64,000 bases of DNA from an uncultured Patescibacteria group bacterium (GTDB lineage Bacteria > Patescibacteriota > Microgenomatia > UBA1400 > PJMF01), in contig CAJQIG010000004.1 in NCBI GenBank assembly GCA_905478415.1, positions 75,523 to 139,522 on the forward strand, read 5' to 3'. The notes under the pieces were generated by a model. It worked only from the letters and a program-made list of their open reading frames with translations, was not told the origin of the DNA and did no database searches. Shown one piece after another: positions 5,811 through 42,249 of this stretch. Each line of letters opens with the position of its first letter. Position 1 is the first letter of the stretch. Both the position numbers and the translations under genes were made by a program.

Positions 5811-7013
5811 ATGCACTATTCTCAGATAAAAACCATTGTCCTTGGCACCGAAAACCTTGAAAGATGGAGTCAACACAAAAATGATTTTTTCAATTGTCTT
5901 GCCATCCCGATTACCCACGAGCCCCTCTCATCCCAAATAGCTTCACTACAAAAGTATGTAACCCTTTGTAAGAACTTAGAATCTATTGTCGGTCTTAATG
6001 ACCGAGCAATCCTCATTATTTCACTGCTTGAAAATAACCAAATACAAGTCTTAGATGCTCAGACTGTCGTACAGTTTCAACATAAAGAGTCTTTTTTGAA
6101 ACTCCTTTCAAAACTCGCTATTCCCATTATGAACTGGCAGACAATTTCTTCTACCCAAGAGGAAACCATACAGCTTAAGTTTCCATTCTTTATTAAACCA
6201 ATCCGAGGCGCTTTTTCAGAAAAAACTGGCAAAATACATTCCCTTGTTGAGTTGAAGAATCATTTTTCAAAGTACTCGGTCAATGAGAAGATTGATCCTA
6301 CAATCAAAAAATTATTTATGTGTGAAAACACGGAACATCTCAACTCATATATTATTCAAGAATTTGTCTCAGCCCCTCAATACACTGTGGACTTTTATGT
6401 CAGATCTGGAAAAGTAATTATTGAAGCTATCACTGAAAGTTTAATAGATTCTCACTACCAAAGTTTTATTGGTTTCGAAACTCCGTCTCTCTTGCCAAAA
6501 GAATGCGTACAGGATCTTAAGAACTATATCCAGAAAATTACTACGCATCTAGCACTGCCTAATGCTTATTTTAATGTTGAATTTTTTGTTAAAGATAACC
6601 AAATTCTTATTATTGAATGGAACCCTCGGCTTTCAGCCCAATTTTTAAAAATGTTTGAGTACTCTTTAGGAAAAAACTATTTACAATCAGTACTGCACTT
6701 GGGCCAAGGAGAAGAGGTACTAAATACTAAGGAAGAAGAAACAAAAATTGCTCATATTTTCGTCCTAAGAAAAAAACGAGACCAAGTAATGCAACGAACA
6801 CTCTCAAAATCTGAAGTTGCAGTAATCGAAAAAAAATATGATCTCTTAGAACTCAAAATCACTGCTCTTCCAAATAAAAAACTCTCTGAAGTCAGACAAG
6901 ATAGCCAAAGCTTTAGATTCGGCTACGCAACTCTAGCTGGTTCATTTTTGGATAGGGCTGCTACTCATAGAGCCTTACAGACAGAACTTGAAGCTCTCTT
7001 TTTAGATAGTTAA
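5811..7013 (+). CDS. ATP-grasp domain protein (unknown ligase)
   Basis: FPFFIKPIRGAFSEKTG, IIQEFV, IIEWNPR motifs resemble ATP-grasp B/C-loop signatures. Confidence 0.5.
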   Translation: MHYSQIKTIVLGTENLERWSQHKNDFFNCLAIPITHEPLSSQIASLQKYVTLCKNLESIVGLNDRAILIISLLENNQIQVLDAQTVVQFQHKESFLKLLSKLAIPIMNWQTISSTQEETIQLKFPFFIKPIRGAFSEKTGKIHSLVELKNHFSKYSVNEKIDPTIKKLFMCENTEHLNSYIIQEFVSAPQYTVDFYVRSGKVIIEAITESLIDSHYQSFIGFETPSLLPKECVQDLKNYIQKITTHLALPNAYFNVEFFVKDNQILIIEWNPRLSAQFLKMFEYSLGKNYLQSVLHLGQGEEVLNTKEEETKIAHIFVLRKKRDQVMQRTLSKSEVAVIEKKYDLLELKITALPNKKLSEVRQDSQSFRFGYATLAGSFLDRAATHRALQTELEALFLDS

Positions 7014-7019
7014 GCGCTT

Positions 7020-7256
7020 CTACTCGACAGTATACTTAAGCCCTTCAATCACTGCCTTAAGCTTCTTAGGCTGTACCTTGGTTGGATCGTACTCAATTGT
7101 TGTCTGTGAAGCTGCGTAGCTCGTAGTGGCCTGCAATACCCCAGCTACATCCTCGAGCTCTCCATCGATACTCATACTGCAGCTGGTGCAATGCATACCA
7201 CTAATCTTAAACACAACTTTTTCTCCAACTGGTTTTTTCTTTAGAAAATTGAACAT
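7020..7256 (-). CDS. copZ: Heavy-metal-associated (HMA) copper chaperone, CopZ-like
   Basis: GMHCTSC metal-binding motif; 78 aa; first-but-last gene (3' end) of the cop operon. Confidence 0.8.
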   Translation of the reverse strand: MFNFLKKKPVGEKVVFKISGMHCTSCSMSIDGELEDVAGVLQATTSYAASQTTIEYDPTKVQPKKLKAVIEGLKYTVE

Positions 7257-7265
7257 ACCTACCTC

Positions 7266-8375
7266 CTATATAACTTCCATTGTGCCACTATACATACCCA
7301 TTGAACAAGTATAGGTATACCGTCCTGGCTTCTTTGGTATAAATGTAACGGTTTGCCTATCAGTTGACTCTAAAAACTTTGAAATACCAAACTCTTTGAA
7401 AACAAATGATAACGCGCACGAATAGACTCCATTACTTTGTAACGTTAATTGAACTGGAACTCCACTTTCAACCTTAAAATAATTGGGGCTATATCCGTTG
7501 CTCAACACATTCAGTGTCACTTGTTGCACTCCGTTTGTAACTGCAGTTGTAGTGGTATTCGAAAATCTATCACCAGAAAAAAAGTAAGTGACCGGCCTTA
7601 CAATTCGGTTAAGCGTTAGTGGTGAGTCCATGACCAATAGTACTCCATTCACACTGTATACAGCCATGCCAACGAGCACGTAGGCAGCAACTTTCATAAA
7701 GGTTTGATACCAGCCTTCACTGAGTTTTGCAGTTGCAACACCAATCAACGCAAAGAGAGGAAGCGTTCCTAATACAAACGAAAACATAATCACGGCCCCT
7801 TGAAAGGGATTACCAGAATTTATAGCTAATACTTCCATTGCTTGTGTAACTCCACACGGAATAAAAACCGTCATTAACCCCAGCACAGCTGGAGCAAATA
7901 AAGCTCTGCTCTGACTGGTATTTCGAACTAGTCGTTGCAAAAACTTTGGTGGCTGAAAAGCTACATACCTAAAAATTGGGTGTACATCTAACAGATTCAT
8001 AGCTGTAGCAAACATGAAGAGAGCAGTGAAGACCTGGAAGCCAAGTCGAACTCCCAAACTCAAAGTAATTGCCGAACCTGCTAACCCGAGTAAAAATCCA
8101 AGGACTGTATGAGCTACTAACTTTGTTGTCAAAAACATGGCCACTGGCATCCAATCAAGCGAATCAAAGGACTTCAAAGAAAAATTATTCTTTTGTAACG
8201 TCTGCAAGTAGGCAGACTTTTTCTTTTCTTTTATCTTTTTTTTGTCAGAGATAATTTCGTCACGTTCTTGGTCTTTTTGATTTGCAATCACACTGGTCAA
8301 CAAACCACCTTGCATAGCTACACACGAGAGGCCTCCAGTTGTTAAGCCCGTTAAAAAAATAAGTAAAGTATTCAT
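7266..8375 (-). CDS. DsbD_2-like polytopic membrane protein fused to a C-terminal cupredoxin-like Cys/Met-rich domain
   Basis: TM motifs GGLSC and IPCGVT in helices. The C-terminal beta-rich domain ends YTYTCSMGMYSGTMEV (cupredoxin-like). Tight spacing to copA and copZ (8-9 nt). Confidence 0.55.
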   Translation of the reverse strand: MNTLLIFLTGLTTGGLSCVAMQGGLLTSVIANQKDQERDEIISDKKKIKEKKKSAYLQTLQKNNFSLKSFDSLDWMPVAMFLTTKLVAHTVLGFLLGLAGSAITLSLGVRLGFQVFTALFMFATAMNLLDVHPIFRYVAFQPPKFLQRLVRNTSQSRALFAPAVLGLMTVFIPCGVTQAMEVLAINSGNPFQGAVIMFSFVLGTLPLFALIGVATAKLSEGWYQTFMKVAAYVLVGMAVYSVNGVLLVMDSPLTLNRIVRPVTYFFSGDRFSNTTTTAVTNGVQQVTLNVLSNGYSPNYFKVESGVPVQLTLQSNGVYSCALSFVFKEFGISKFLESTDRQTVTFIPKKPGRYTYTCSMGMYSGTMEVI

Positions 8376-8383
8376 GGTGTTGC

Positions 8384-10636
8384 TTATTCTAAATGAGTAG
8401 TTTTTAATCGTAAGGCATTCAGGACTACACTCACACTTGAGAAAGCCATGGCCGCACCTGCTAACACCGGATTCAGTACAATTCCAAAGGTGGGATAGAG
8501 AACACCCATTGCTACTGGAATGAGCACCACGTTATATCCAAAAGCCCAAAATAAGTTTTGACGAATGTTGCGCATAGTAGCCTTAGAGAGTGAGAGCGCC
8601 GTTGGCACTAAACTAATGTCACTTCTCAGAAGCGTGACCCCAGCTGACTCAATCGCCACATCAGTTCCACCTCCCATAGCAATACCAACGTCGGCAGTAG
8701 CCAATGCTGGTGCATCATTTATGCCATCACCAACCATAGCGACAACTGGATATTTTTTGCGCAACTCCCGAATAGTCTTCTCTTTTTGATCTGGAAGAAC
8801 CTCAGCAACAACCTCTGTAATGTCAACTTCTTTAGCTATGGCTAATGCAGTACTCTTATTATCTCCCGTTAACATAATGCTGGTCACACCCATCTTCTTG
8901 AGTGTTTCTATAACTGATGCAGACTTTTCTTTGACTGGATCAGCTATTCCAAAGAATGCAACCAGTTTTCCCTTTACCGCCATAAATGTGACAGTCTGTC
9001 CTTTTTCCATCAGGCCCTGAATTTCATTTGTATACTGTTCTGGAATAGAAATAGTTTGTTCTGCTAGTAACTTTTGACTGCCAATCACAATAGCTATACC
9101 GGCAACTTGAGCAGTTACCCCCTTTCCACTGATATCTTTAAATTTCTGCACTTCTAGAGATGATTTAGACGGTAGTTTCTCTTTGGCATAGAGTGCTAAA
9201 GCTGTAGCCAGTGGATGATGAGAGAGTTCCTCTACTGCATACAACTGTGCTACCGTTTCTTTTTCTGCACCTGTGACAAAAACTGCAGCTTGAACTGTCG
9301 GACTTCCTTCAGTCAATGTGCCCGTTTTATCGAAAACAACTGCGCTGACTTTGTTCGCAATTTCTAGTGCCCGAGCATCTTTGATTAACACTCCTAACTG
9401 TGCTCCTTTACCCATACCAACCATCAGGGATGTTGGTGTTGCCAAACCTAAAGCACAAGGGCAAGCAATAATTAGTACATTGATCATACTTACTAGTGCA
9501 AATAAAAACCGTGGTTCTGGACCAATGATCATCCAAACACCAAAAGTAGCTACTGCTATTACAATCACAACTGGCACAAAATAAGATGCAATCGTATCAA
9601 CGAGTGCTTGAATTGGTGGCCGAGACCCCTGAGCCTCTTTCACAGACCGAATAATAGCAGCTAGCATCGTCTCACTACCTACTTTGGTAGCTTTCATCTC
9701 AAAACTACCAGATTTGTTGAGCGTTGCACCAACAACTGCATCACCAACTTGCTTACTCACGGGCATACTTTCTCCCGTTACCATACTTTCATCAATAGAA
9801 CTTTCTCCTTTACTCACTTGCCCATCAACAGCAACTTTTTCTCCTGGCTTAACCAGTAAGGTATCTCCAACTTTGACTTGGTCTGTAGGAACTTCAACCC
9901 ACTCTCTACCTTTTTTAACTAGAGCAGTTTTGACCTGTAAATTAAGTAATTCTTTAATTGCAGAAGATGTTTGAGCTTTAGCCCGAATCTCGAGATACTT
10001 ACCAAGTAAGATAAACGTGATAATAGCTGCTGCAGCTTCAAAGTACACATGAGTCTCAATCCCAGCTTCCGTAAACTGCGCACCAAAGATTGTTACTACC
10101 ACTGAGTAAAAGTATGCCACCGAAGTTCCAAGCACCACCAAAGTATCCATATTAGCAGAAAAATTTTTCAGACCAGACCAAGCTCCCTGATAAAAACGCT
10201 TTCCAACCCAAAACTGGACAGGTGTTGCTAGAACCATCAAAACCCAAGGGTTATGTAAGAACTCAGGCACTGCTGGCACCATACTTGCTATTAGTAGCAC
10301 TGAAAGCACTCCACTCACCTGCAACTTTGACTTCAGCGATTGCAACTCCTTAGCCCGCTCGACTTCAGCAATATCTCCATCATCTTCAATATGAGCTACA
10401 TACCCCACAGAACTCACTGCAGCTACAAGTGTATCTGTAGTTACCTGGTCACTGTTGAAAGTAACGGTGGCTTGTTCGTTGGCGTAGTTGACCGCGGCTT
10501 CAGTTACTCCAGTGGTCTTACTCAATTTTCTAGAGATATTAGTAGCACAACTAGCACAGTGCATACCCGAGACATGAAAGGAAAGTGTGCTTTTATTGTC
10601 TGTTTTAGTCGACATATTTTTGGGGTTCCTTTTCAA
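8384..10636 (-). CDS. copA: Copper-translocating P1B-type ATPase
   Basis: N-terminal HMA GMHCASC, CPC in TM6, [15 protein letters not shown]. Confidence 0.93.
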
Positions 10637-32181: not shown

Positions 32182-33165
32182 CTATAAATATAAAAAGTTA
32201 AACAAATATCCAATTAAAATTATTCCCACAATCGTTATCCCAAAGAAGAGTGCTAACAACTGCCACCGCATGACCTTCTTGAGTATGAGTGCTTCAGGAA
32301 TAGAGAGTGTGACCGTTGCAGTCATAAATGCTAAAGCTGTTCCTAATGGAATTCCCTTTCCTACAAACGCTTCAACCACGGGTATCACAGAGACAGAGTT
32401 AGCATAGAGAGGTACTCCCAAAATAACTGCTGCTGGGACACTCCACCATGTTTTCATTCCCAGATACTGTTCCAGTAAGCTCTGTGGTACATAACCATGG
32501 ATGATAGCTCCTATCGCTACGCCTAAAATGACATAGGGATACACTTTTTTCGTAATTCCCCAACCATCTACCCACCATAATTTTATTTTCTCTCCTAATT
32601 TTAGCTCGTTTCCTTCATTCTCCATTAACACTTGAGAATGATTTTTGAATTTCAAAAGAGACGATTCTACATAGTTTTCCATCTTCAATTTTTCAATCAA
32701 GATGCCCCCTAAGATACTGACTCCAATACCTACCAGGTTATACACAATTGTTGTCTTCATTCCAAATAATGCTGGGAAAAGAAATAGTGAAGACTCATTC
32801 ACTAATGGTGAACTAATCAAAAAGGTGAACGTAACTCCCATTGGTATTCCAGCCGAAAGAAAACCAATAAATAATGGAATAGATGAACAAGAACAGAAAG
32901 GTGTGACCACGCCAAGCAACGCCGCCAAAAGATAGTCCATCCCGTACCAGCGTCTCTTAGTAAGGACATCTCGCACTTTTTTCATCGGAAAATAAAATCG
33001 AGTAATTGCCATTAAATAATTAATAAAAATCAAGAGAATACCAATTTTGAGTACATCGTAGATAAAGAAACTACTAGCATTTCCTAAGTAACTATCTTGA
33101 GCTATGTTCAACCATAGATACGTAACTTTATCGGCAAAGGTTTGTAGAGGACTAAATATGTCCAT
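32182..33165 (-). CDS. arsP: ArsP/YraQ-family permease (putative organoarsenical or metalloid efflux)
   Basis: VVTPFCSCSSIPLF matches the ArsP TPFCSCS motif; 8-10 TM helices. Confidence 0.7.
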   Translation of the reverse strand: MDIFSPLQTFADKVTYLWLNIAQDSYLGNASSFFIYDVLKIGILLIFINYLMAITRFYFPMKKVRDVLTKRRWYGMDYLLAALLGVVTPFCSCSSIPLFIGFLSAGIPMGVTFTFLISSPLVNESSLFLFPALFGMKTTIVYNLVGIGVSILGGILIEKLKMENYVESSLLKFKNHSQVLMENEGNELKLGEKIKLWWVDGWGITKKVYPYVILGVAIGAIIHGYVPQSLLEQYLGMKTWWSVPAAVILGVPLYANSVSVIPVVEAFVGKGIPLGTALAFMTATVTLSIPEALILKKVMRWQLLALFFGITIVGIILIGYLFNFLYL

Positions 33166-33400
33166 AGATTTTTTCCTTGACCTTATCTTTATTCGAATTG
33201 AAACCGACCATAACGACTTTTCCGTCGACTACTAAAACTGGACTGCTCATTGCACCGGTTTTTAAAATTTCCTGGATACCTTTGTCACCGGTTATATACT
33301 CAACAACGTCAGTTTCATTCACTTCTGCGACAATTGTTTTTACCAGTTCATGTAATTTTTGACAAGTCTGACACCCGGAACCTAAAACTTTTATTTTCAT
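33152..33400 (-). CDS. Thioredoxin-fold redox-active disulfide protein (Thioredoxin_3-like)
   Basis: GSGCQTC motif; 82 aa; overlaps the arsP start. Confidence 0.7.
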   Translation of the reverse strand: MKIKVLGSGCQTCQKLHELVKTIVAEVNETDVVEYITGDKGIQEILKTGAMSSPVLVVDGKVVMVGFNSNKDKVKEKIYGHI

Positions 33401-33412
33401 ATCACATTCCTT

Positions 33413-33733
33413 CTACATACTAAATACCAACTCAACTATCCTTACTCCTTTTGGAGTCAAGCTGTAATAAACCTGCAAGCCTGTTTTTTTTCCTACAATT
33501 AGTTTAGCTTTTCGTAAATCAGCTAAGTGGTGAGATAACAAACTTTGAGATAACTGGACATGTTCAGAAAACTCACACACACAGTGAGTGCCTTGTCTAA
33601 GAATACAAAGAATTTTTAGTCTACTTGGCTCAGCAACTAATTTGAGAAGTGTAGACAAACTATCAATACGACTAAACTCTGTATCACTTGGCTGGCAACA
33701 ACTATATGAATGCATATTCATATAGTACATCAA
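33413..33733 (-). CDS. arsR: ArsR-family repressor with CVC metalloid-binding motif
   Basis: HTH plus HCVCEF, matching the ArsR As(III) site ELCVCDL. Confidence 0.8.
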   Translation of the reverse strand: MMYYMNMHSYSCCQPSDTEFSRIDSLSTLLKLVAEPSRLKILCILRQGTHCVCEFSEHVQLSQSLLSHHLADLRKAKLIVGKKTGLQVYYSLTPKGVRIVELVFSM

Positions 33734-33846: not shown

Positions 33847-34044
33847 TTAAGATTCGTACTCTTTTGTTGCACCGTTCTCTAGTGCTCTTTCAGCATTAGC
33901 TTTAGACATCATTGCACAAACAGTTGTTCCACACTTCTCGTGCTTCCCTTTGGCCATGAAACCACCTTTTTTAGTTTTGTGAATCCCTGGTGCTGACAAT
34001 TCAACGCCTTTTTCCTTACATTTAACGCAGTATCCTGTGACCAT
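33847..34044 (-). CDS. DUF5679-family small zinc-ribbon protein
   Basis: CVKCKEK...KCGTTVCAM Cys pattern typical of DUF5679. Confidence 0.55.
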   Translation of the reverse strand: MVTGYCVKCKEKGVELSAPGIHKTKKGGFMAKGKHEKCGTTVCAMMSKANAERALENGATKEYES

Positions 34045-34223
34045 GTCGATCTCCCTTTAAATTATATCTTGTTGCATTATAACGCCATTTTATGTTGATT
34101 CATACCTTAAAGGTAAAAGCAGGCAAACCTAGAGGTTGTTTTTCCTAGCAAACTTAGAATTTCGTGTCAGAAAAAAATAAATAAAGTTGAGGCTCGCTGT
34201 CGTGGATGAAGTTAGGAACTGTT

Positions 34224-34427
34224 TTATTTAGCTTCTTCTATCTGTTTAGGTGGACATTTACTATCTGCATAAGAACAAAAAACACAACAATCACCTTTTT
34301 TAGGAGTCATTGTCTTTTCACATTTCTCACACTTGAAAAAGTGCTGACAAGCATCTGTCGGCATTTCAGAAATTTGATCATGACCACAAAAGGGGCAAGT
34401 TATTGTAGCAGTTGTTTTTATTTCCAT
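34224..34427 (-). CDS. Cys-rich small zinc-ribbon protein (10 Cys in 67 aa)
   Basis: CPFCGH...CQHFFKCEKCEK...GDCCVFCSY...CPP. Confidence 0.4.
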   Translation of the reverse strand: MEIKTTATITCPFCGHDQISEMPTDACQHFFKCEKCEKTMTPKKGDCCVFCSYADSKCPPKQIEEAK

Positions 34428-34570
34428 GCTTCCATCATAGCAGGTTCGAGCCTCCTATTCGGGTTATAAAAAATACTCGAGGAAAAACCTCGTGCTCCCC
34501 GCTCTTGAAGAAGTTAGGAACGGATTACTTTTAACAAACTACATGCCACCACAATCTCTGTAAGCCCTAT

Positions 34571-35002
34571 CTAGTTCACTTTTCTAACCTTCACCAAGTC
34601 ATCAACACCCTCAACAGAAATCTGCCTACCATTAACACCATCAATTACCATCGCATTTGGTAAATGTGCGTATCGGTACTTGTATTTGCCCTCAGTCTGC
34701 TCCCAAACTTGACCATTCTGAAACTGAAACTTCATTCCATGATTAAAACCTTCAAATTTTGAGGTAATTCTGCCCTCAGTCACTATTTGAATTTGTTGCA
34801 CCTCTACCGTGTCATTCATTCCTTCAATACTGATAACATAACTACCAGTAGAATTAGGTTTAATGACCACAGCAGGTCGATAAGCATAATGGTAGTTATA
34901 CTTATACACACTCTGCTGCCAAACTTGTCCATTATCTAGTTTAAAGACGGATTCACCATCAAACCCATGGAACTCACCTTCTATGTGACTATGTATTGTC
35001 AT
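34571..35002 (-). CDS. Hypothetical protein with two tandem ~67-aa beta-rich repeats (possible di-Ubl/beta-grasp)
   Basis: Internal duplication: GEFHGFDGESVFKLDNGQVWQQSVYKYNYHYAYRP... vs SKFEGFNHGMKFQFQNGQVWEQTEGKYKYRYAHLP... Last gene of the cassette operon. Confidence 0.5.
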   Translation of the reverse strand: MTIHSHIEGEFHGFDGESVFKLDNGQVWQQSVYKYNYHYAYRPAVVIKPNSTGSYVISIEGMNDTVEVQQIQIVTEGRITSKFEGFNHGMKFQFQNGQVWEQTEGKYKYRYAHLPNAMVIDGVNGRQISVEGVDDLVKVRKVN

Positions 35003-35351
35003 AATTTTCCTCCAATTCTCTGTACCATACTATTCTACCGCTATTTAACCAAAAGTGGCTTTTACATCCCTTTAGTCTCCATATTGAAGGAGATAGCGAA
35101 GGTCGTTTCTTTTTTACTGTCATCTCCCAACGAGGATGCACATCTTCTTGACAATTTAAATAGATTTTTGCTCCACAACCACAAGGGCACTTGAGAATGA
35201 AATACCATTGATAGCCATTTTCGCCGACCACATATAAGACCTTGTCCTTTACTGACTTTGGATTAAAACTCTGCACTGAAACAATTTTAAAGTATTCATC
35301 AAACCCAATTTTATTTCTAAGCCAACGGACAAAAGTATTTACTATTTTCAT
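34989..35351 (-). CDS. Zinc-binding Cys/His cluster protein (possible treble-clef/RING-like), 120 aa
   Basis: LKCPCGCGAKIYLNCQEDVHPRW...KGCKSHFW; 4-nt overlap with the JAB-E1 gene. Confidence 0.45.
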   Translation of the reverse strand: MKIVNTFVRWLRNKIGFDEYFKIVSVQSFNPKSVKDKVLYVVGENGYQWYFILKCPCGCGAKIYLNCQEDVHPRWEMTVKKKRPSLSPSIWRLKGCKSHFWLNSGRIVWYRELEENYDNT

Positions 35352-36745
35352 AGTGATGGGTATCCCAGTACTACTTTCTGGTCACCTAGACCAATCTTTT
35401 TCACTAAACTAGTATCTATTCCTCTTGATTTGATTGGCTCAATATAACTATCCAAAAGACTCATCCTCAAGCTCACAATTTCAGTATCTAAACCAAATCT
35501 AAGACCATGTAGTCTATTAAGTAACTCTAGTATTCCAAAGCTAGCAGCGAATGAGTTAGGAGTAATAACTGCAGGAACTTCTTCTGGTAGTCCAGGTAAG
35601 TAACCCTCATCAAGCTGCTTTCTGTATTCTTCTCTGTTGGAGGCTTTCATAGATGCAGCAGCTAATTGTGATGAATTAAAAATCCCCCGTTTATGAAGTG
35701 ACTCACCTGGTAAAATATAGTCTGCTCTTGCTGATACATGCTCAACCCCTCCATTACCATCAATCAAAATTTTCACTCCTACATCTATTATTGGAATTAG
35801 ATAGTATGTCCCCATGCGGTTGATAACCTGCCTTGCATATACATCATCAACACAGCTAAATAAAACATCGCACCCTTTCAAAAAATCAACTGCAGCTCGG
35901 CTTGCGATACTTTCTTGCATTACATTAACAGTTGTTCCTAAACCAAGTTCATTTGCATATCTAACAAATACATCTACCTTTGACGACTTATTTTTGACAT
36001 CTCCTGTTGTCGCCCCAACAATTCTATTAAGATTTTTTGCTTCAACTATGTCTGGGTCAATCAAGGTAAGAGACTGAACTCCATAATGAAGCAGCTGTTG
36101 GATAACTAAACTTCCTGTACCAGAACAACCAATTACTCCAACACGAAGCTTTTTTAGTTTTGATAAGGTTTCTGACCCAAAAACCTGATGTGACCTTTTT
36201 TCATGCTCAGCTAATTCACCGATATTTTTTATTTTGGGCGATATTCTGTCCCCAACCATAAGAACGTCATCCACATCTTCAAATTTTTCTTGATTGAAAA
36301 CTCTTGCTTTTATTACACCATCTGGCAAAAGTATTGCACTCATGAATGAATTCTCTCTTCCTAGCCAAGAATGGACAGTATTTGCTAGCGACTTATCAGA
36401 GATATCATCTGCATTCGAGAATGTCTCAATGCCCGAGGGGTGACTATGAATCTTAAGTATTCCATAGGAACCATCAATGTATTCACTCAATTTTTCTGCC
36501 AGAAGAGCCGTCTTCCAAGTTATATGAGATTTAGAACGACTCTTAATTTCTTCTAAATTAAAAGGGACTATCTCGTGAACCAAAAAAATAATTTCACCTT
36601 TACTTTCTGCAACTCCACATACAACAATAGCCACCGATTCCTTTGAGTCCCCAGGGTAAAGATAACCTTTTATTTCTGTTAGCTGCGGTTCTGTAATTCT
36701 CAGCCTAATCGATTTTTTCATGCTAATGTCTCTTTTTCCAACCAA
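35348..36745 (-). CDS. JAB/JAMM deubiquitinase-like domain fused to E1-like (ThiF/MoeB) adenylyltransferase domain
   Basis: N-terminal JAMM motif E...HSHPSGIETFSNADD (HxHx7Sx2D). C-terminal Rossmann VGVIGCSGTGS...LIDPDIVEAKNLNR typical of E1/ThiF. Confidence 0.8.
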   Translation of the reverse strand: MVGKRDISMKKSIRLRITEPQLTEIKGYLYPGDSKESVAIVVCGVAESKGEIIFLVHEIVPFNLEEIKSRSKSHITWKTALLAEKLSEYIDGSYGILKIHSHPSGIETFSNADDISDKSLANTVHSWLGRENSFMSAILLPDGVIKARVFNQEKFEDVDDVLMVGDRISPKIKNIGELAEHEKRSHQVFGSETLSKLKKLRVGVIGCSGTGSLVIQQLLHYGVQSLTLIDPDIVEAKNLNRIVGATTGDVKNKSSKVDVFVRYANELGLGTTVNVMQESIASRAAVDFLKGCDVLFSCVDDVYARQVINRMGTYYLIPIIDVGVKILIDGNGGVEHVSARADYILPGESLHKRGIFNSSQLAAASMKASNREEYRKQLDEGYLPGLPEEVPAVITPNSFAASFGILELLNRLHGLRFGLDTEIVSLRMSLLDSYIEPIKSRGIDTSLVKKIGLGDQKVVLGYPSL

Positions 36746-37440
36746 GTAGTAACCTGGAGAATGTGTGTGCCAACCCCATCTACATCAGACCTCCATTCAT
36801 CAGCGCTTTTTCTATGTCTTGACCACCTTTGGAAAGATTGACCCTTAATTTGTTGTTCTGATATTTTTTCTACAGTTTTTTTTGAATTTAGAGTTAAATG
36901 TGGGTGAAAGTATGCCATATCAATCTGCACATCTGGATATGCTGGAGGAATCATCAATGCTAAAGTTGCTCTCTTTTGGTCATATCCATGCGGAACTTCA
37001 AAGTCATAGAGAAGGAGCCAGTTACTGGCTCCTTCCTTTATTGCTTCCCATTTTTTGAAAGATTTAGTGAGATGGCTTTTGTCATCTTCAGGTAAATCAA
37101 AATCATTCCCATCACCCTCTGTTTGGTCAAGTGGCATTGTTATGAATCGTTCTACACCAGGTCGTGTTAAGTTGATTATTTCGTCATAATCAATGCGTTG
37201 AACTTGTCCTCCATGTAGTTTTTGACTAATCATAAACTGCTCCACGGGTGTTTTACCTGCAAGCTCGAGCAACGAACGACCTGATATGGTTTCTGTATTA
37301 ACCACGAAATGCTGGCGGTCGATGAGAATTTTATATCTACGTCCTTTCGGAATAGGCTTTTTAGACCTTGCATGAGCTTGGAGGTCAATTACCTCAGCTT
37401 TACTAGCTTCTACTGTTTTGTTGGGGGTGTCATTAGACAT
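36718..37440 (-). CDS. Ubiquitin-like (multiubiquitin-type beta-grasp) domain fused to an E2/UEV-like domain that has no cysteine
   Basis: N-terminal YKILIDRQHFVVNTETISGRSLLELAGK...IDYDEIINL beta-grasp pattern. C-terminal LALMIPPAYPDVQIDMAYFHPHL resembles the UBC fold up to the HPN-like motif, but there is no Cys anywhere in the protein. Confidence 0.55.
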   Translation of the reverse strand: MSNDTPNKTVEASKAEVIDLQAHARSKKPIPKGRRYKILIDRQHFVVNTETISGRSLLELAGKTPVEQFMISQKLHGGQVQRIDYDEIINLTRPGVERFITMPLDQTEGDGNDFDLPEDDKSHLTKSFKKWEAIKEGASNWLLLYDFEVPHGYDQKRATLALMIPPAYPDVQIDMAYFHPHLTLNSKKTVEKISEQQIKGQSFQRWSRHRKSADEWRSDVDGVGTHILQVTTWLEKETLA

Positions 37441-37639: not shown

Positions 37640-38002
37640 ATGAGCAAACTTACAATTCAACGTATTGGCATCGAGATAAAAAACAAAAGAGGCACCAAAG
37701 GATTAAGAGAAACAGCTAAAATAATCGGAGTAAGTGCTGCAACACTTTCAAGAATTGAATCTGGAAAACAACCCGATTTAGATACATTTGTCAAAATCTG
37801 TAAGTGGCTCGAAATCAACCCCTCAGAAATACTTTCTTTTGAAGAAACTCAGCCCTTTTCCTCAGACGACGTTAACAACAATAGTTTCACATCAGCACAT
37901 TTAAGAGCAAATAGAGAACTCTCTCCTGAAACCGCTAGTCATTTAACACAGGCTATACTTTCCATGCGTGAATTCCTCTCTATGAACGATGATGTTTCAT
38001 AA
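37640..38002 (+). CDS. XRE-family helix-turn-helix transcriptional regulator (CapH/ImmR-like)
   Basis: LRETAKIIGVSAATLSRIESGKQ HTH_3 motif. Confidence 0.75.
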   Translation: MSKLTIQRIGIEIKNKRGTKGLRETAKIIGVSAATLSRIESGKQPDLDTFVKICKWLEINPSEILSFEETQPFSSDDVNNNSFTSAHLRANRELSPETASHLTQAILSMREFLSMNDDVS

Positions 38003-38010
38003 GGGGTGTC

Positions 38011-38577
38011 ATGTCAAACTTCAAACTTAACCCAGGATTCAAGAGATGGTGCGAGAAAGCTGCAACTGCTTTTCGAAGTGAATTTGGTCTCCTGGCAACT
38101 GCTGCTCTTCCATCAGAAAAAATGGCTGAATATCTGAATGTTCAGGTTGTTGAATTTTCTGAGTTGAGAATCCCTGCTGAATCTAAGACATATTTGCTGA
38201 CACAAGGTTCCAAAGAATGGTCTGCAGCAACTGTATCTAGCTCAAAAAAAACAGTTATTTTAATCAATGAAAGTCATACTGAGGAAAGAAAAAACAATAG
38301 CCTTATGCATGAGCTCTCTCATATTATTTTGAAGCACGAGCCATCAAAGTTTACCAACCTACTCGAAGCTGGTATTTCCTTTCGCACATACGATGAAAAG
38401 CTTGAAAAAGAAGCTGATTGGCTCGCCGCAACACTACTTCTTCCCAAAGATGTTTTAGAAACTATTGGAGCAATAGTTTCTAAGGCTGATATAGAGAGAA
38501 AACACACCGTAAGTCCAGAGCTTCTTAGATTTAGGTTGAATCTAACTGGAATTGGTAAGAAAATTAAAAATCAATAA
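38011..38577 (+). CDS. ImmA/IrrE-family zinc metallopeptidase (CapP-like)
   Basis: SLMHELSHIILKHE HExxH motif; located immediately downstream of the XRE gene. Confidence 0.7.
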   Translation: MSNFKLNPGFKRWCEKAATAFRSEFGLLATAALPSEKMAEYLNVQVVEFSELRIPAESKTYLLTQGSKEWSAATVSSSKKTVILINESHTEERKNNSLMHELSHIILKHEPSKFTNLLEAGISFRTYDEKLEKEADWLAATLLLPKDVLETIGAIVSKADIERKHTVSPELLRFRLNLTGIGKKIKNQ

Positions 38578-40608: not shown

Positions 40609-42216
40609 ATGAAACGTGTTTTTATGTACTGCAGAAAATCAAGTGAAGATAAGGGTAAACAGATACTCTCAATAGACGACCAAAAACGTGAATTATGGCG
40701 AATTGCTAAAAACCTAAACTTAAAAGTAATTGATGAGCCAATCGAAGAAGTAAAGTCAGCTAAAGCACCAGGAAGACCAAAGTTTAGTGAGTTGGTAAAA
40801 AAAATCTATAATAATGAAGCTGATGGTATTTTATGTTGGAAACTAGACCGACTTGCTAGAAATCCCATTGATGGTGGCAACATCATTTGGATTGTAAAAG
40901 ACCAAGGAAAGGTTATTTACACACCTTCTCAAACCTTCTCCCATCAGTCAGAAAATACTATCATGATGTACATCGAGTTTGGTATGGCACAAAAATACAT
41001 TGATGATTTAGGAAAAAGCGCAAAAAGAGGCATGAAAACAAAAGCTGAGATGGGGTGGTATCCTGCTCATGCTCCACTTGGTTATGAAAATACACCTGGT
41101 GAAAAGAAAGGTTCAAGAAAAATAATAAGTGATAATAATTTCAAGCTAGTTCAACGGTGTTTTTACGAAATTCTCAAAGGCAAACAAGCTTCACATGTTT
41201 GGAGAAAAGCTAGAGAAAAATGGGGGTTAAAGTCAAAAAAAGGGAATCCCGTTGCTCACTCTACTTTTTACAACATATTAACTCACCCCTTTTACTATGG
41301 TGAATATGAGTGGCCTCGTGGTAGTGGAAATTGGTACCAGGGAAAGCATGAGCCAATGATTACCAAAGAGCAATTTGATGTTGTGCAAAAAATGTTAGGA
41401 AAAAATGGAAAGCCAATCTCTAGGAGTCATACTTTTGATTTAACTGGACTCTTTAGATGTTCAATCTGTAGCTGCGCAATTACTGCCACAAAAAAAACTA
41501 AACACTATAAAACTACAGGAAGAATTGCAGAATACACCTATTATCACTGTTCCAAGAAAAATCAAAATATCAAGTGTTCACAACCCCCTGTCAGTGAAAA
41601 AGACTTCGAGAACGAAATTATGAAGCAACTAATGATGCTCAGACCTCCAGAGGAGTTTGTGACTTGGGCGAAAAAATGGATTAAAACTGTACATGACTAC
41701 GAATCTCAAACAGAAGAAGAAATACTTGCATCTCAAAATAAAGAGCTTGAATCAGTCGAAAATCAGCTGAGCAATTTACTTGATTTGCGTATCAGAAGTG
41801 ATATTGACGACTCAACATATAGGAGCAAAAAAACACTCCTTGAACAGGAAAAATTGACTGTTAAAAGAAAGATTAACGAATCAGGAAACAACCTTTCATC
41901 TCTTAGAATTAGAGTAGAGAACGCTATCGACATAGCCTATGGCTCACATCTAAGGTTTAAGACTGGAAAACGTGAGACAAAACAAGAGATTCTAGTGAGC
42001 CTTGGCTCGAACCTCATCTTAAATCATAAAAAAATACGGATAGACCTGTTAAAACACTTTGAAGTCTTTAGAGATAATGAAAAATGGGAAGATACATATG
42101 AAGATTGGCTCGAACCTCAAAAATACATGGAACTATTCGAAAAAAGACCTGATTTGCGACCTGCAAATCCAGTATGGCTCCCCCGGGAGGATTCGAACCT
42201 CCAACCTACCGGTTAA
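40609..42216 (+). CDS. Large serine recombinase (resolvase/invertase N-domain + recombinase domain + zinc ribbon). The 3' end of the ORF reads into tRNA-Asn, so the true stop may be earlier.
   Basis: YCRKSSEDKGKQ...SIDDQ (catalytic Ser); recombinase-domain and CxxC...C zinc-ribbon region; 535 aa. Confidence 0.8.
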   Translation: MKRVFMYCRKSSEDKGKQILSIDDQKRELWRIAKNLNLKVIDEPIEEVKSAKAPGRPKFSELVKKIYNNEADGILCWKLDRLARNPIDGGNIIWIVKDQGKVIYTPSQTFSHQSENTIMMYIEFGMAQKYIDDLGKSAKRGMKTKAEMGWYPAHAPLGYENTPGEKKGSRKIISDNNFKLVQRCFYEILKGKQASHVWRKAREKWGLKSKKGNPVAHSTFYNILTHPFYYGEYEWPRGSGNWYQGKHEPMITKEQFDVVQKMLGKNGKPISRSHTFDLTGLFRCSICSCAITATKKTKHYKTTGRIAEYTYYHCSKKNQNIKCSQPPVSEKDFENEIMKQLMMLRPPEEFVTWAKKWIKTVHDYESQTEEEILASQNKELESVENQLSNLLDLRIRSDIDDSTYRSKKTLLEQEKLTVKRKINESGNNLSSLRIRVENAIDIAYGSHLRFKTGKRETKQEILVSLGSNLILNHKKIRIDLLKHFEVFRDNEKWEDTYEDWLEPQKYMELFEKRPDLRPANPVWLPREDSNLQPTG

Positions 42217-42249
42217 CAGCCGGGCGCTCTGCCATTGAGCTACAGGGGA
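42175..42249 (-). tRNA. tRNA-Asn (anticodon GTT), CCA encoded
   Basis: Hand-folded cloverleaf: acceptor UCCCCUG/CGGGGGA, D-stem GCUC/GAGC, anticodon loop CUGUUAA, T-arm GGAGGUUCGAAUCCUCC, discriminator G plus CCA. Close to E. coli tRNA-Asn. Confidence 0.85.

Follow-up and report, generated by a model that had tools for sequence, protein, structure and literature searches.

Type I Bub operons, formerly called 6E.1, consist of the three genes BubAB, BubCD and BubE (Ye, Gong, Chambers & Corbett, bioRxiv 10.1101/2024.11.21.623953) and have also been described together with CapH and CapP (bioRxiv 10.1101/2024.11.21.623966); a divergent CapH and CapP pair is found in 31% of Bub operons (bioRxiv 10.1101/2024.11.21.623953). 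A further mark of the type is oxyester chemistry, with a crossover-loop Tyr in the E1 and a catalytic Ser in the E2. The Bil (bacterial ISG15-like) system, BilABCD, has four genes, and its E2 has been proposed to recognise the target. The commonest cargo of CapH/CapP is CBASS, and Lau et al. also reported operons of the type 'DUF2188 + hypothetical protein' under these regulators (bioRxiv 10.1101/2022.04.27.489752). The Multi_ubiq (PF14452) or polyUbl proteins of the 6e operons are built from small tandem repeats of 60-70 aa (PMC1779556).

We analysed a stretch of 64,000 nucleotides from an uncultured Patescibacteria group bacterium (contig CAJQIG010000004.1; the window), in which an operon of this known kind carries a fourth gene. 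The gene encodes a 143-aa tandem beta-repeat protein, hereafter TR, which is similar to the Multi_ubiq proteins in the size and tandem arrangement of its repeats and in the kind of operon. Neither a TR-like gene in the papers on Bub, Bil and CapH/CapP or in the 2006 Aravind-group paper (PMC1779556), nor a fifth gene of the Bil system in the Bil papers, has been described. The accessible literature thus describes neither the appended TR gene nor the fact that it recurs in Bil, Bub and 6E-like operons.

A Type I Bub operon with a fourth gene

The operon and the regulator genes divergent from it comprise the following features:
37640..38002 (+), CapH-like HTH repressor, divergent from the operon (Pfam HTH_3, E 5e-9; PADLOC capH, weak)
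38011..38577 (+), CapP-like Peptidase_M78 of the IrrE/ImmA family (PF06114, E 1.1e-16; PADLOC capP, E 1.4e-13)
36718..37440 (-), bubAB, Multi_ubiq Ubl fused to Prok-E2_E, 240 aa (Multi_ubiq, E 1.2e-13; Prok-E2_E, E 8.8e-34)
35348..36745 (-), bubCD, JAB peptidase fused to a ThiF-type E1, 465 aa (ThiF, E 8.9e-30; Prok-JAB, E 2.5e-4; PADLOC E1-E2 models)
34989..35351 (-), bubE, DUF6527 serine protease family (PF20137, E 4.7e-23)
35009..35013 (-), Shine-Dalgarno sequence GGAGG of TR, 6 nt before its ATG and within the 3' end of bubE (sequence reading)
34571..35002 (-), TR gene, fourth and last in the operon (ORF, homologues, AlphaFold2)
34784..35002 (-), TR repeat 1, residues 1-73, with GxFxGF, NGQVWQQ and YKYNYHYAYRP (internal BLASTP and repeat HMM)
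34574..34783 (-), TR repeat 2, residues 74-143, with FEGF, NGQVWEQ, KYKYRYAHLP and the end VRKVN (internal BLASTP and repeat HMM)
34468..34492 (-), terminator-like hairpin CGAGG-TTTTT-CCTCG with a T-run, ~80 nt past the TR stop (consensus match)

The Ubl-E2 fusion, the JAB-E1 fusion and a DUF6527 protein with a zinc and dyad pattern are the features by which Type I Bub operons are recognised. In BubE, the spacing CPCGC...SxxxxxxCxxH, read by eye, appears to fit the published C4 zinc site and the Ser/His dyad. By its gene content the operon is accordingly assigned to Type I Bub (6E.1), with the genes BubAB, BubCD and BubE under CapH/CapP control and TR as the fourth gene. It shares with the published operons the same three upstream genes, the divergent CapH and CapP and the location on a mobile island, and differs from them by the extra gene of an unannotated family that overlaps bubE. 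Several further metagenome assemblies from this organism contain the identical four-gene operon.

The Ubl domain of BubAB (37114-37440, -) ends at Gly109 in the sequence ..QTEG|DGNDF.., and this glycine aligns with the C-terminal glycine of the free Ubls from three TR-linked operons (L016, L090 and L032). Hence, the operon already owns its modifier. QTEG|DG at Gly109 is a probable site at which JAB cleavage frees the Ubl from the E2.

The operon adjoins the gene of a large serine recombinase, with a tRNA-Asn gene nearby. The recombinase has 535 aa (40609-42216, +), with Resolvase, Recombinase and Zn_ribbon_recom domains in the identical locus L001, and the 3' end of its gene overlaps the tRNA-Asn gene on the opposite strand (42175-42249, -). 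Because of this arrangement, the Bub operon is considered to lie on a recombinase-bearing island. Convincing att direct repeats were looked for around the island and none were found.

The TR gene starts with an ATG at 35002 and stops with a TAG at 34573-34571 on the minus strand. Its ATG lies inside the bubE reading frame, the stop of which overlaps the TR start by 14 nt. With the bub genes upstream on the same strand and the terminator-like hairpin behind it, TR is the terminal gene of the operon, as the first-pass annotation had it; the hairpin itself is a match to a consensus, and the number of such sites is not above that expected from shuffled sequence. TR would hence be co-transcribed with bubE and is probably translationally coupled to it.

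TR is a two-repeat, all-beta protein

The first-pass annotation had described TR as two tandem beta-rich repeats, and this description holds. A BLASTP comparison of residues 1-74 with residues 75-143 gives 25 identities over 67 positions (37%), with 60% positives, one gap and E = 1e-15. This similarity is far above chance and shows an internal duplication. The motifs that had been quoted are all present in the translation, with NGQVWQQ at residues 24-30, NGQVWEQ at 96-102, KYNYHYAYRP at 34-43 and KYKYRYAHLP at 106-115. A repeat HMM built from homologues finds two copies in the protein, with E values of 4e-30 and 5e-28. TR has more than 150 homologues at E <= 1e-3, mostly of 140-147 aa and with the two-repeat layout kept, and is thus a genuine conserved gene. 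A signal peptide is absent, hydrophobic stretches do not exceed four residues, and the protein begins directly with repeat 1; the 140-147-aa clade as a whole is likewise of the cytoplasmic type, starting with repeat 1 and having no signal peptide.

For the two repeats together, an AlphaFold2 model from a 45-sequence alignment reached a pLDDT of 96.6 and a pTM of 0.88. DSSP assigns eleven strands and no helix to this model, and a long strand of residues 65-79 bridges repeat 1 into repeat 2. A single repeat was modelled with a pLDDT of 90.7 and showed six strands, with a helix again absent. The beta-grasp fold is a mixed beta-sheet that grips a central alpha-helix, and the helix is obligatory. 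As neither model contains a helix, TR has no beta-grasp fold. The first-pass annotation had proposed a di-Ubl or multiubiquitin protein and had named a predicted fold unrelated to the beta-grasp as the outcome that would speak against it; this is the fold that was obtained.

Comparison with known structures and profiles gave no sign of a ubiquitin-like protein either. In a Foldseek search of the PDB, the best E values were 0.067 for the two-repeat and 0.84 for the single-repeat model, with TM scores of at most 0.32 and no ubiquitin-like match, and a search of BFVD with the two-repeat model returned nothing significant. The matches to sliding clamps, lectins, SAWADEE, SSB and RCC1 (best E 0.02-0.8 in PDB and BFVD, TM <= 0.32) were treated as noise. 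Searches of Pfam, NCBIfam, PADLOC and PDB sequences with the TR protein or the 45-member alignment also gave nothing significant, and Multi_ubiq was not matched; weak matches to MORN_2 and DUF2207 were put down to the YxYxY composition. When the TR repeat profile was compared by hhalign with an alignment of the operon's own Ubl family, the probability was 0.1%. The alternative idea of a target mimic or phage protein found no support, as tblastn against 50,697 phage records gave no match and the BFVD search no significant viral structural similarity.

Compared with Multi_ubiq (PMC1779556), TR is all-beta instead of a beta-grasp with a helix, shares no sequence or profile similarity, and lacks a C-terminal glycine. 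The protein ends in ..VKVRKVN, in line with the remark that it lacks Gly-Gly, and the C-termini of the family are basic, of the form ..V(R/K)R(V/I)(K/R) or ..VRR[VIK], and without glycine. In size, all-beta make-up, tandem use and an hFxGW-like motif, TR is similar to small beta-barrels of the Tudor/MBT/SAWADEE and SH3-like kinds, of which the SH3/Tudor-like ones have a five-stranded topology. The closest of these, L3MBTL1 by sequence (E 1.4) and SAWADEE by Foldseek (E about 0.2), are both below significance.

The TR repeat defines a large family

When 1.84 billion cluster representatives were searched with a profile, the repeat was found in 2,738 clusters, defined at 50% identity, at E <= 1e-3 and in 1,341 at E <= 1e-10. 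In GTDB species genomes, at least 310 TR loci from many phyla were confirmed. The TR repeat is thus a large domain family that has neither a Pfam or NCBIfam model nor a detectable structural relative. Its unit of ~68 aa is marked by GxFxG(W/F), NGQxWxQ, an aromatic ladder ending in proline, and six beta-strands, all of which are present in both repeats of the window protein. N-G-Q-V-W-Q and one proline are invariant across 39 diverse members, and the cytoplasmic clade adds a Tyr/Lys ladder with the consensus RYKYKYKYKYRP. No catalytic signature was found in the TR alignments, in which only G, F, N, G, Q, W, Q, Y and P are invariant, and a conserved pattern of Asp, His, Cys or Ser hinting at catalysis is absent from the family.

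The number of repeats per protein is one in proteins of 70-90 aa, two in the 143-aa cytoplasmic clade, and three or four in others, such as P0121-P0126. Very often the unit is located at the C-terminus of secreted proteins, lipoproteins or large proteins, for example PG-binding-like and PKD-like ones. In one protein of 831 aa (P0176), a TR pair forms the C-terminal region behind an FGE-sulfatase and a P-loop STAND-like NTPase. The C-terminal repeat region, which the module forms in this STAND NTPase and in many secreted proteins, is the usual place of binding or sensor domains. The STAND-fused and multi-unit forms hint at a sensor or binding role, possibly in closed oligomeric assemblies.

TR recurs next to Ubl-conjugation operons

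The link to E1/E2/JAB operons that the first-pass annotation had drawn is real and recurrent, as Bil, Bub and 6E-like operons ending in TR are found elsewhere. Apart from the window, TR follows Ubl-conjugation genes at the following loci:
L016 (Dehalococcoidales MAG): CapH, CapP-like, Multi_ubiq ending in Gly, Prok-E2_E, Prok-JAB, ThiF, TM protein, TR
L090: CapH/CapP, Multi_ubiq-like, 110-aa protein, JAB-like, ThiF, TR (overlaps the E1 stop by 4 nt)
L108: ThiF, then TR
L106 and the P0014 contig: JAB, BilD_N E1, then TR
L032-L035 and L041/L042/L054 (two Bil groups, seven species genomes): 73-77-aa single-repeat TR, 30-45 nt after BilD

In the Bil operons, one- and two-repeat relatives thus come after BilD in parallel to the window TR after BubE. 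The Bil and single-repeat-TR cassettes of L032-L035 and L041/L042/L054 are near-identical in different species genomes of Chloroflexota, Acidobacteriota and Herpetosiphon, which suggests that they were recently transferred horizontally. The TR gene of L032 has genes for TM proteins and for a 72-aa 'YIxNGYIYGP' repeat protein behind it.

On the Rhizobium leguminosarum plasmid pRL1 (L116), a single-repeat TR reading frame (5989-6195, +) and a Type I Bub operon (6934-10450, -) are oriented towards each other. Here the TR reading frame comes after WYL and a pair of a RecB-like nuclease and a DNA2/NAM7 helicase, and the Bub operon has an additional ClpP gene.

In raw tallies, Ubl genes accompany 4 of the 11 two-repeat homologues examined from metagenomes, and 8 of 80 genome loci. 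An initial screen by phmmer with the window Bub proteins had found ThiF in only 1 of these 80 genome loci, as it was insensitive to diverged E2, Ubl and BilD. The picture of a chance passenger given by this screen was overturned by the Pfam-annotated contexts and by jackhmmer. Including the window, we estimate at least eight independent joins of TR to Ubl operons, covering Type I Bub, BubE-less 6E-like and Bil operons. In a neighbour-joining tree, TRs linked to Ubl genes branch in several places among those linked to DUF2188 or S24, and the window TR groups with L008 and L089. This scatter argues for repeated independent joining or shuffling and against one ancestral operon. Hence, in the cytoplasmic clade the association of TR with Ubl operons and with damage-responsive regulators is recurrent and polyphyletic.

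TR without Ubl genes and Bub operons without TR

A second recurrent context consists of CapH and CapP, a LexA/S24 or a MerR/HTH regulator divergent from a DUF2188-TR or small-gene-TR pair. Examples of this type, with no Ubl genes in the module, are L008, L011, L089, L093, L105, L109, L110 and L111. Those with CapH/CapP and DUF2188 share their layout, with TR in the place of the hypothetical protein, with the CapH/CapP-controlled 'DUF2188 + hypothetical protein' operons of Lau et al. (bioRxiv 10.1101/2022.04.27.489752), to which they were compared by description only; the window differs in that DUF2188 is absent and the Bub genes fill its place. DUF2188 has no solved structural relative. In L109, a 72-aa BubE (PF20137) fragment (2274-2492, -) was noticed ~3 kb from the CapH/CapP-DUF2188-TR module and beside an HD-domain gene, which may be the remnant of a degraded Bub operon. 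Other neighbours of TR are defence or mobile genes, namely RhuM, AAA_15/21, HEPN, DUF4365, HerA, an R-M system and SIR2/STAND.

Most members of the TR family are not adjacent to Ubl genes. Conversely, the closest Type I Bub operons found (L086/L087 and the plasmid loci L118-L120) end with BubE, and TR is absent within 4 kb. Among plasmid records, 112 match BubCD and 12 match TR, with little overlap between the two sets and in organisms that differ almost completely. TR is therefore no general Bub component, and most Bub operons, sampled in this direction from Bub and Bil to TR in plasmids and a few loci, do not have it.

Possible role of TR

The best explanation overall, which we would defend with about as much confidence as doubt, is that TR is a cytoplasmic, non-enzymatic, two-domain all-beta protein that accompanies Ubl conjugation as a portable accessory partner. 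That it is portable is suggested by the separate events in which members of the clade became attached to Bil, Bub and 6E-like operons. TR is a tandem duplication of the ~68-residue, six-stranded module of the large unannotated family. In the proposed mechanism, DNA damage or phage infection would lift the repression by CapH/CapP, so that TR would be made together with the Ubl, the E2, the E1 and the two peptidases. The putative conserved face of the protein would consist of NGQVWQQ together with the ladder of Tyr and Lys, where K34 and K106 belong to the conserved 'YKY'. This face may bind the molecule to be modified, or TR itself may receive the Ubl, with the conserved lysine of 'YKY' in each repeat, K34 and K106, as candidate acceptor sites. 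We infer a binding function for TR, a role alongside the conjugation machinery and the importance of particular residues, the term 'binding module' being taken from composition and domain position. A non-catalytic binding or acceptor partner is the most likely description that the sequence allows.

That TR is itself a di-Ubl, activated and conjugated by the operon's E1 and E2 through an atypical C-terminal chemistry, draws its appeal from the E1/E2/JAB context and the repeat size only, and we consider it to have almost no chance of being correct. The models without a helix, and hence without a beta-grasp, the lack of a ubiquitin-like Foldseek match and of a Multi_ubiq match in Pfam, and the hhalign result all contradict it. 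So do the basic family C-termini, the Ubl with a conserved glycine that BubAB already supplies, and the presence of the module in proteins that are secreted and as the C-terminal part of large ones; the di-Ubl identity was thus rejected. Another reading is an envelope or extracellular binding protein that is unrelated to cytoplasmic conjugation, since many single- and C-terminal-repeat relatives have signal peptides, lipoboxes, or PG-binding-like or PKD-like regions. The window protein, however, begins with repeat 1, has no signal peptide and no hydrophobic run of more than four residues, and the entire 140-147-aa clade resembles it in this, which makes an envelope role very improbable.

A stronger rival is that TR is an autonomous stress or defence cargo, with the function that it also has in the DUF2188-TR mini-operons; it would have nothing but the damage-inducible promoter in common with the Bub genes and would have been shuffled to the 3' end of the operon within the mobile island. 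The modules without Ubl genes under CapH/CapP, LexA/S24 or MerR/HTH regulators, the varied defence or mobile genes among the remaining neighbours, and the closest Bub operons, which function as three genes, are all in agreement with such a cargo, and the nearest relatives of the window TR, L008 and L089, are themselves of the DUF2188 or small-gene type. The finding of TR with DUF2188 alone under the same regulators indicates that it can act without a conjugation system, and together with the many family members away from Ubl genes and the many Bub operons without TR it also weighs against an accessory partner. On the other hand, Ubl-conjugation operons are rare, yet they form the most frequent single class of TR neighbours; the at least eight independent joins span three operon families; no CBASS operon was seen beside TR, and the start/stop overlaps with bubE or the E1 suggest co-production. 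We therefore regard an autonomous cargo as possible but doubtful.

Returning to the accessory partner, TR may be an overlooked partner of bacterial ubiquitination systems. If it acted as a receptor or acceptor, it would correspond in function to an E3 substrate adaptor or to a target dedicated to conjugation, and could reveal what Bub modifies; even as a partner in the general sense, it would offer a handle on the targets of Bub conjugation. Bil and Bub choose their substrates without an E3, and the repeated recruitment of TR to the 3' end of three Ubl-operon families, under the same damage-responsive regulators, makes it a concrete candidate, amenable to testing, for the specificity or acceptor factor that is still missing. 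The broader proposal, that TRs are a shared but so far unrecognised component of the Bil, Bub and 6E-like systems and serve there as a portable subunit, either substrate receptor or acceptor, whose fold is unseen in the PDB, is tentative, and we think it rather unlikely in this full form. With ~2,700 clusters, cytoplasmic, secreted and STAND-fused forms, and no structural relative, the repeat merits definition as a family.

Other features near the operon

Between the terminator of the Bub operon and the next operon lie two small reading frames, one encoding a zinc-ribbon-like protein of 67 aa with multiple cysteines (34224-34427, -) and the other a 65-aa DUF5679 protein (33847-34044, -). The former is flanked by a 38-nt imperfect direct repeat with 71% identity (34192-34229 and 34494-34531). 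Just downstream of the island, a small operon (32182-33733, -) encodes an ArsR-type HTH protein, a thioredoxin_3 protein and an ArsP-family permease, and is followed by two adjacent Peptidase_S51 genes.
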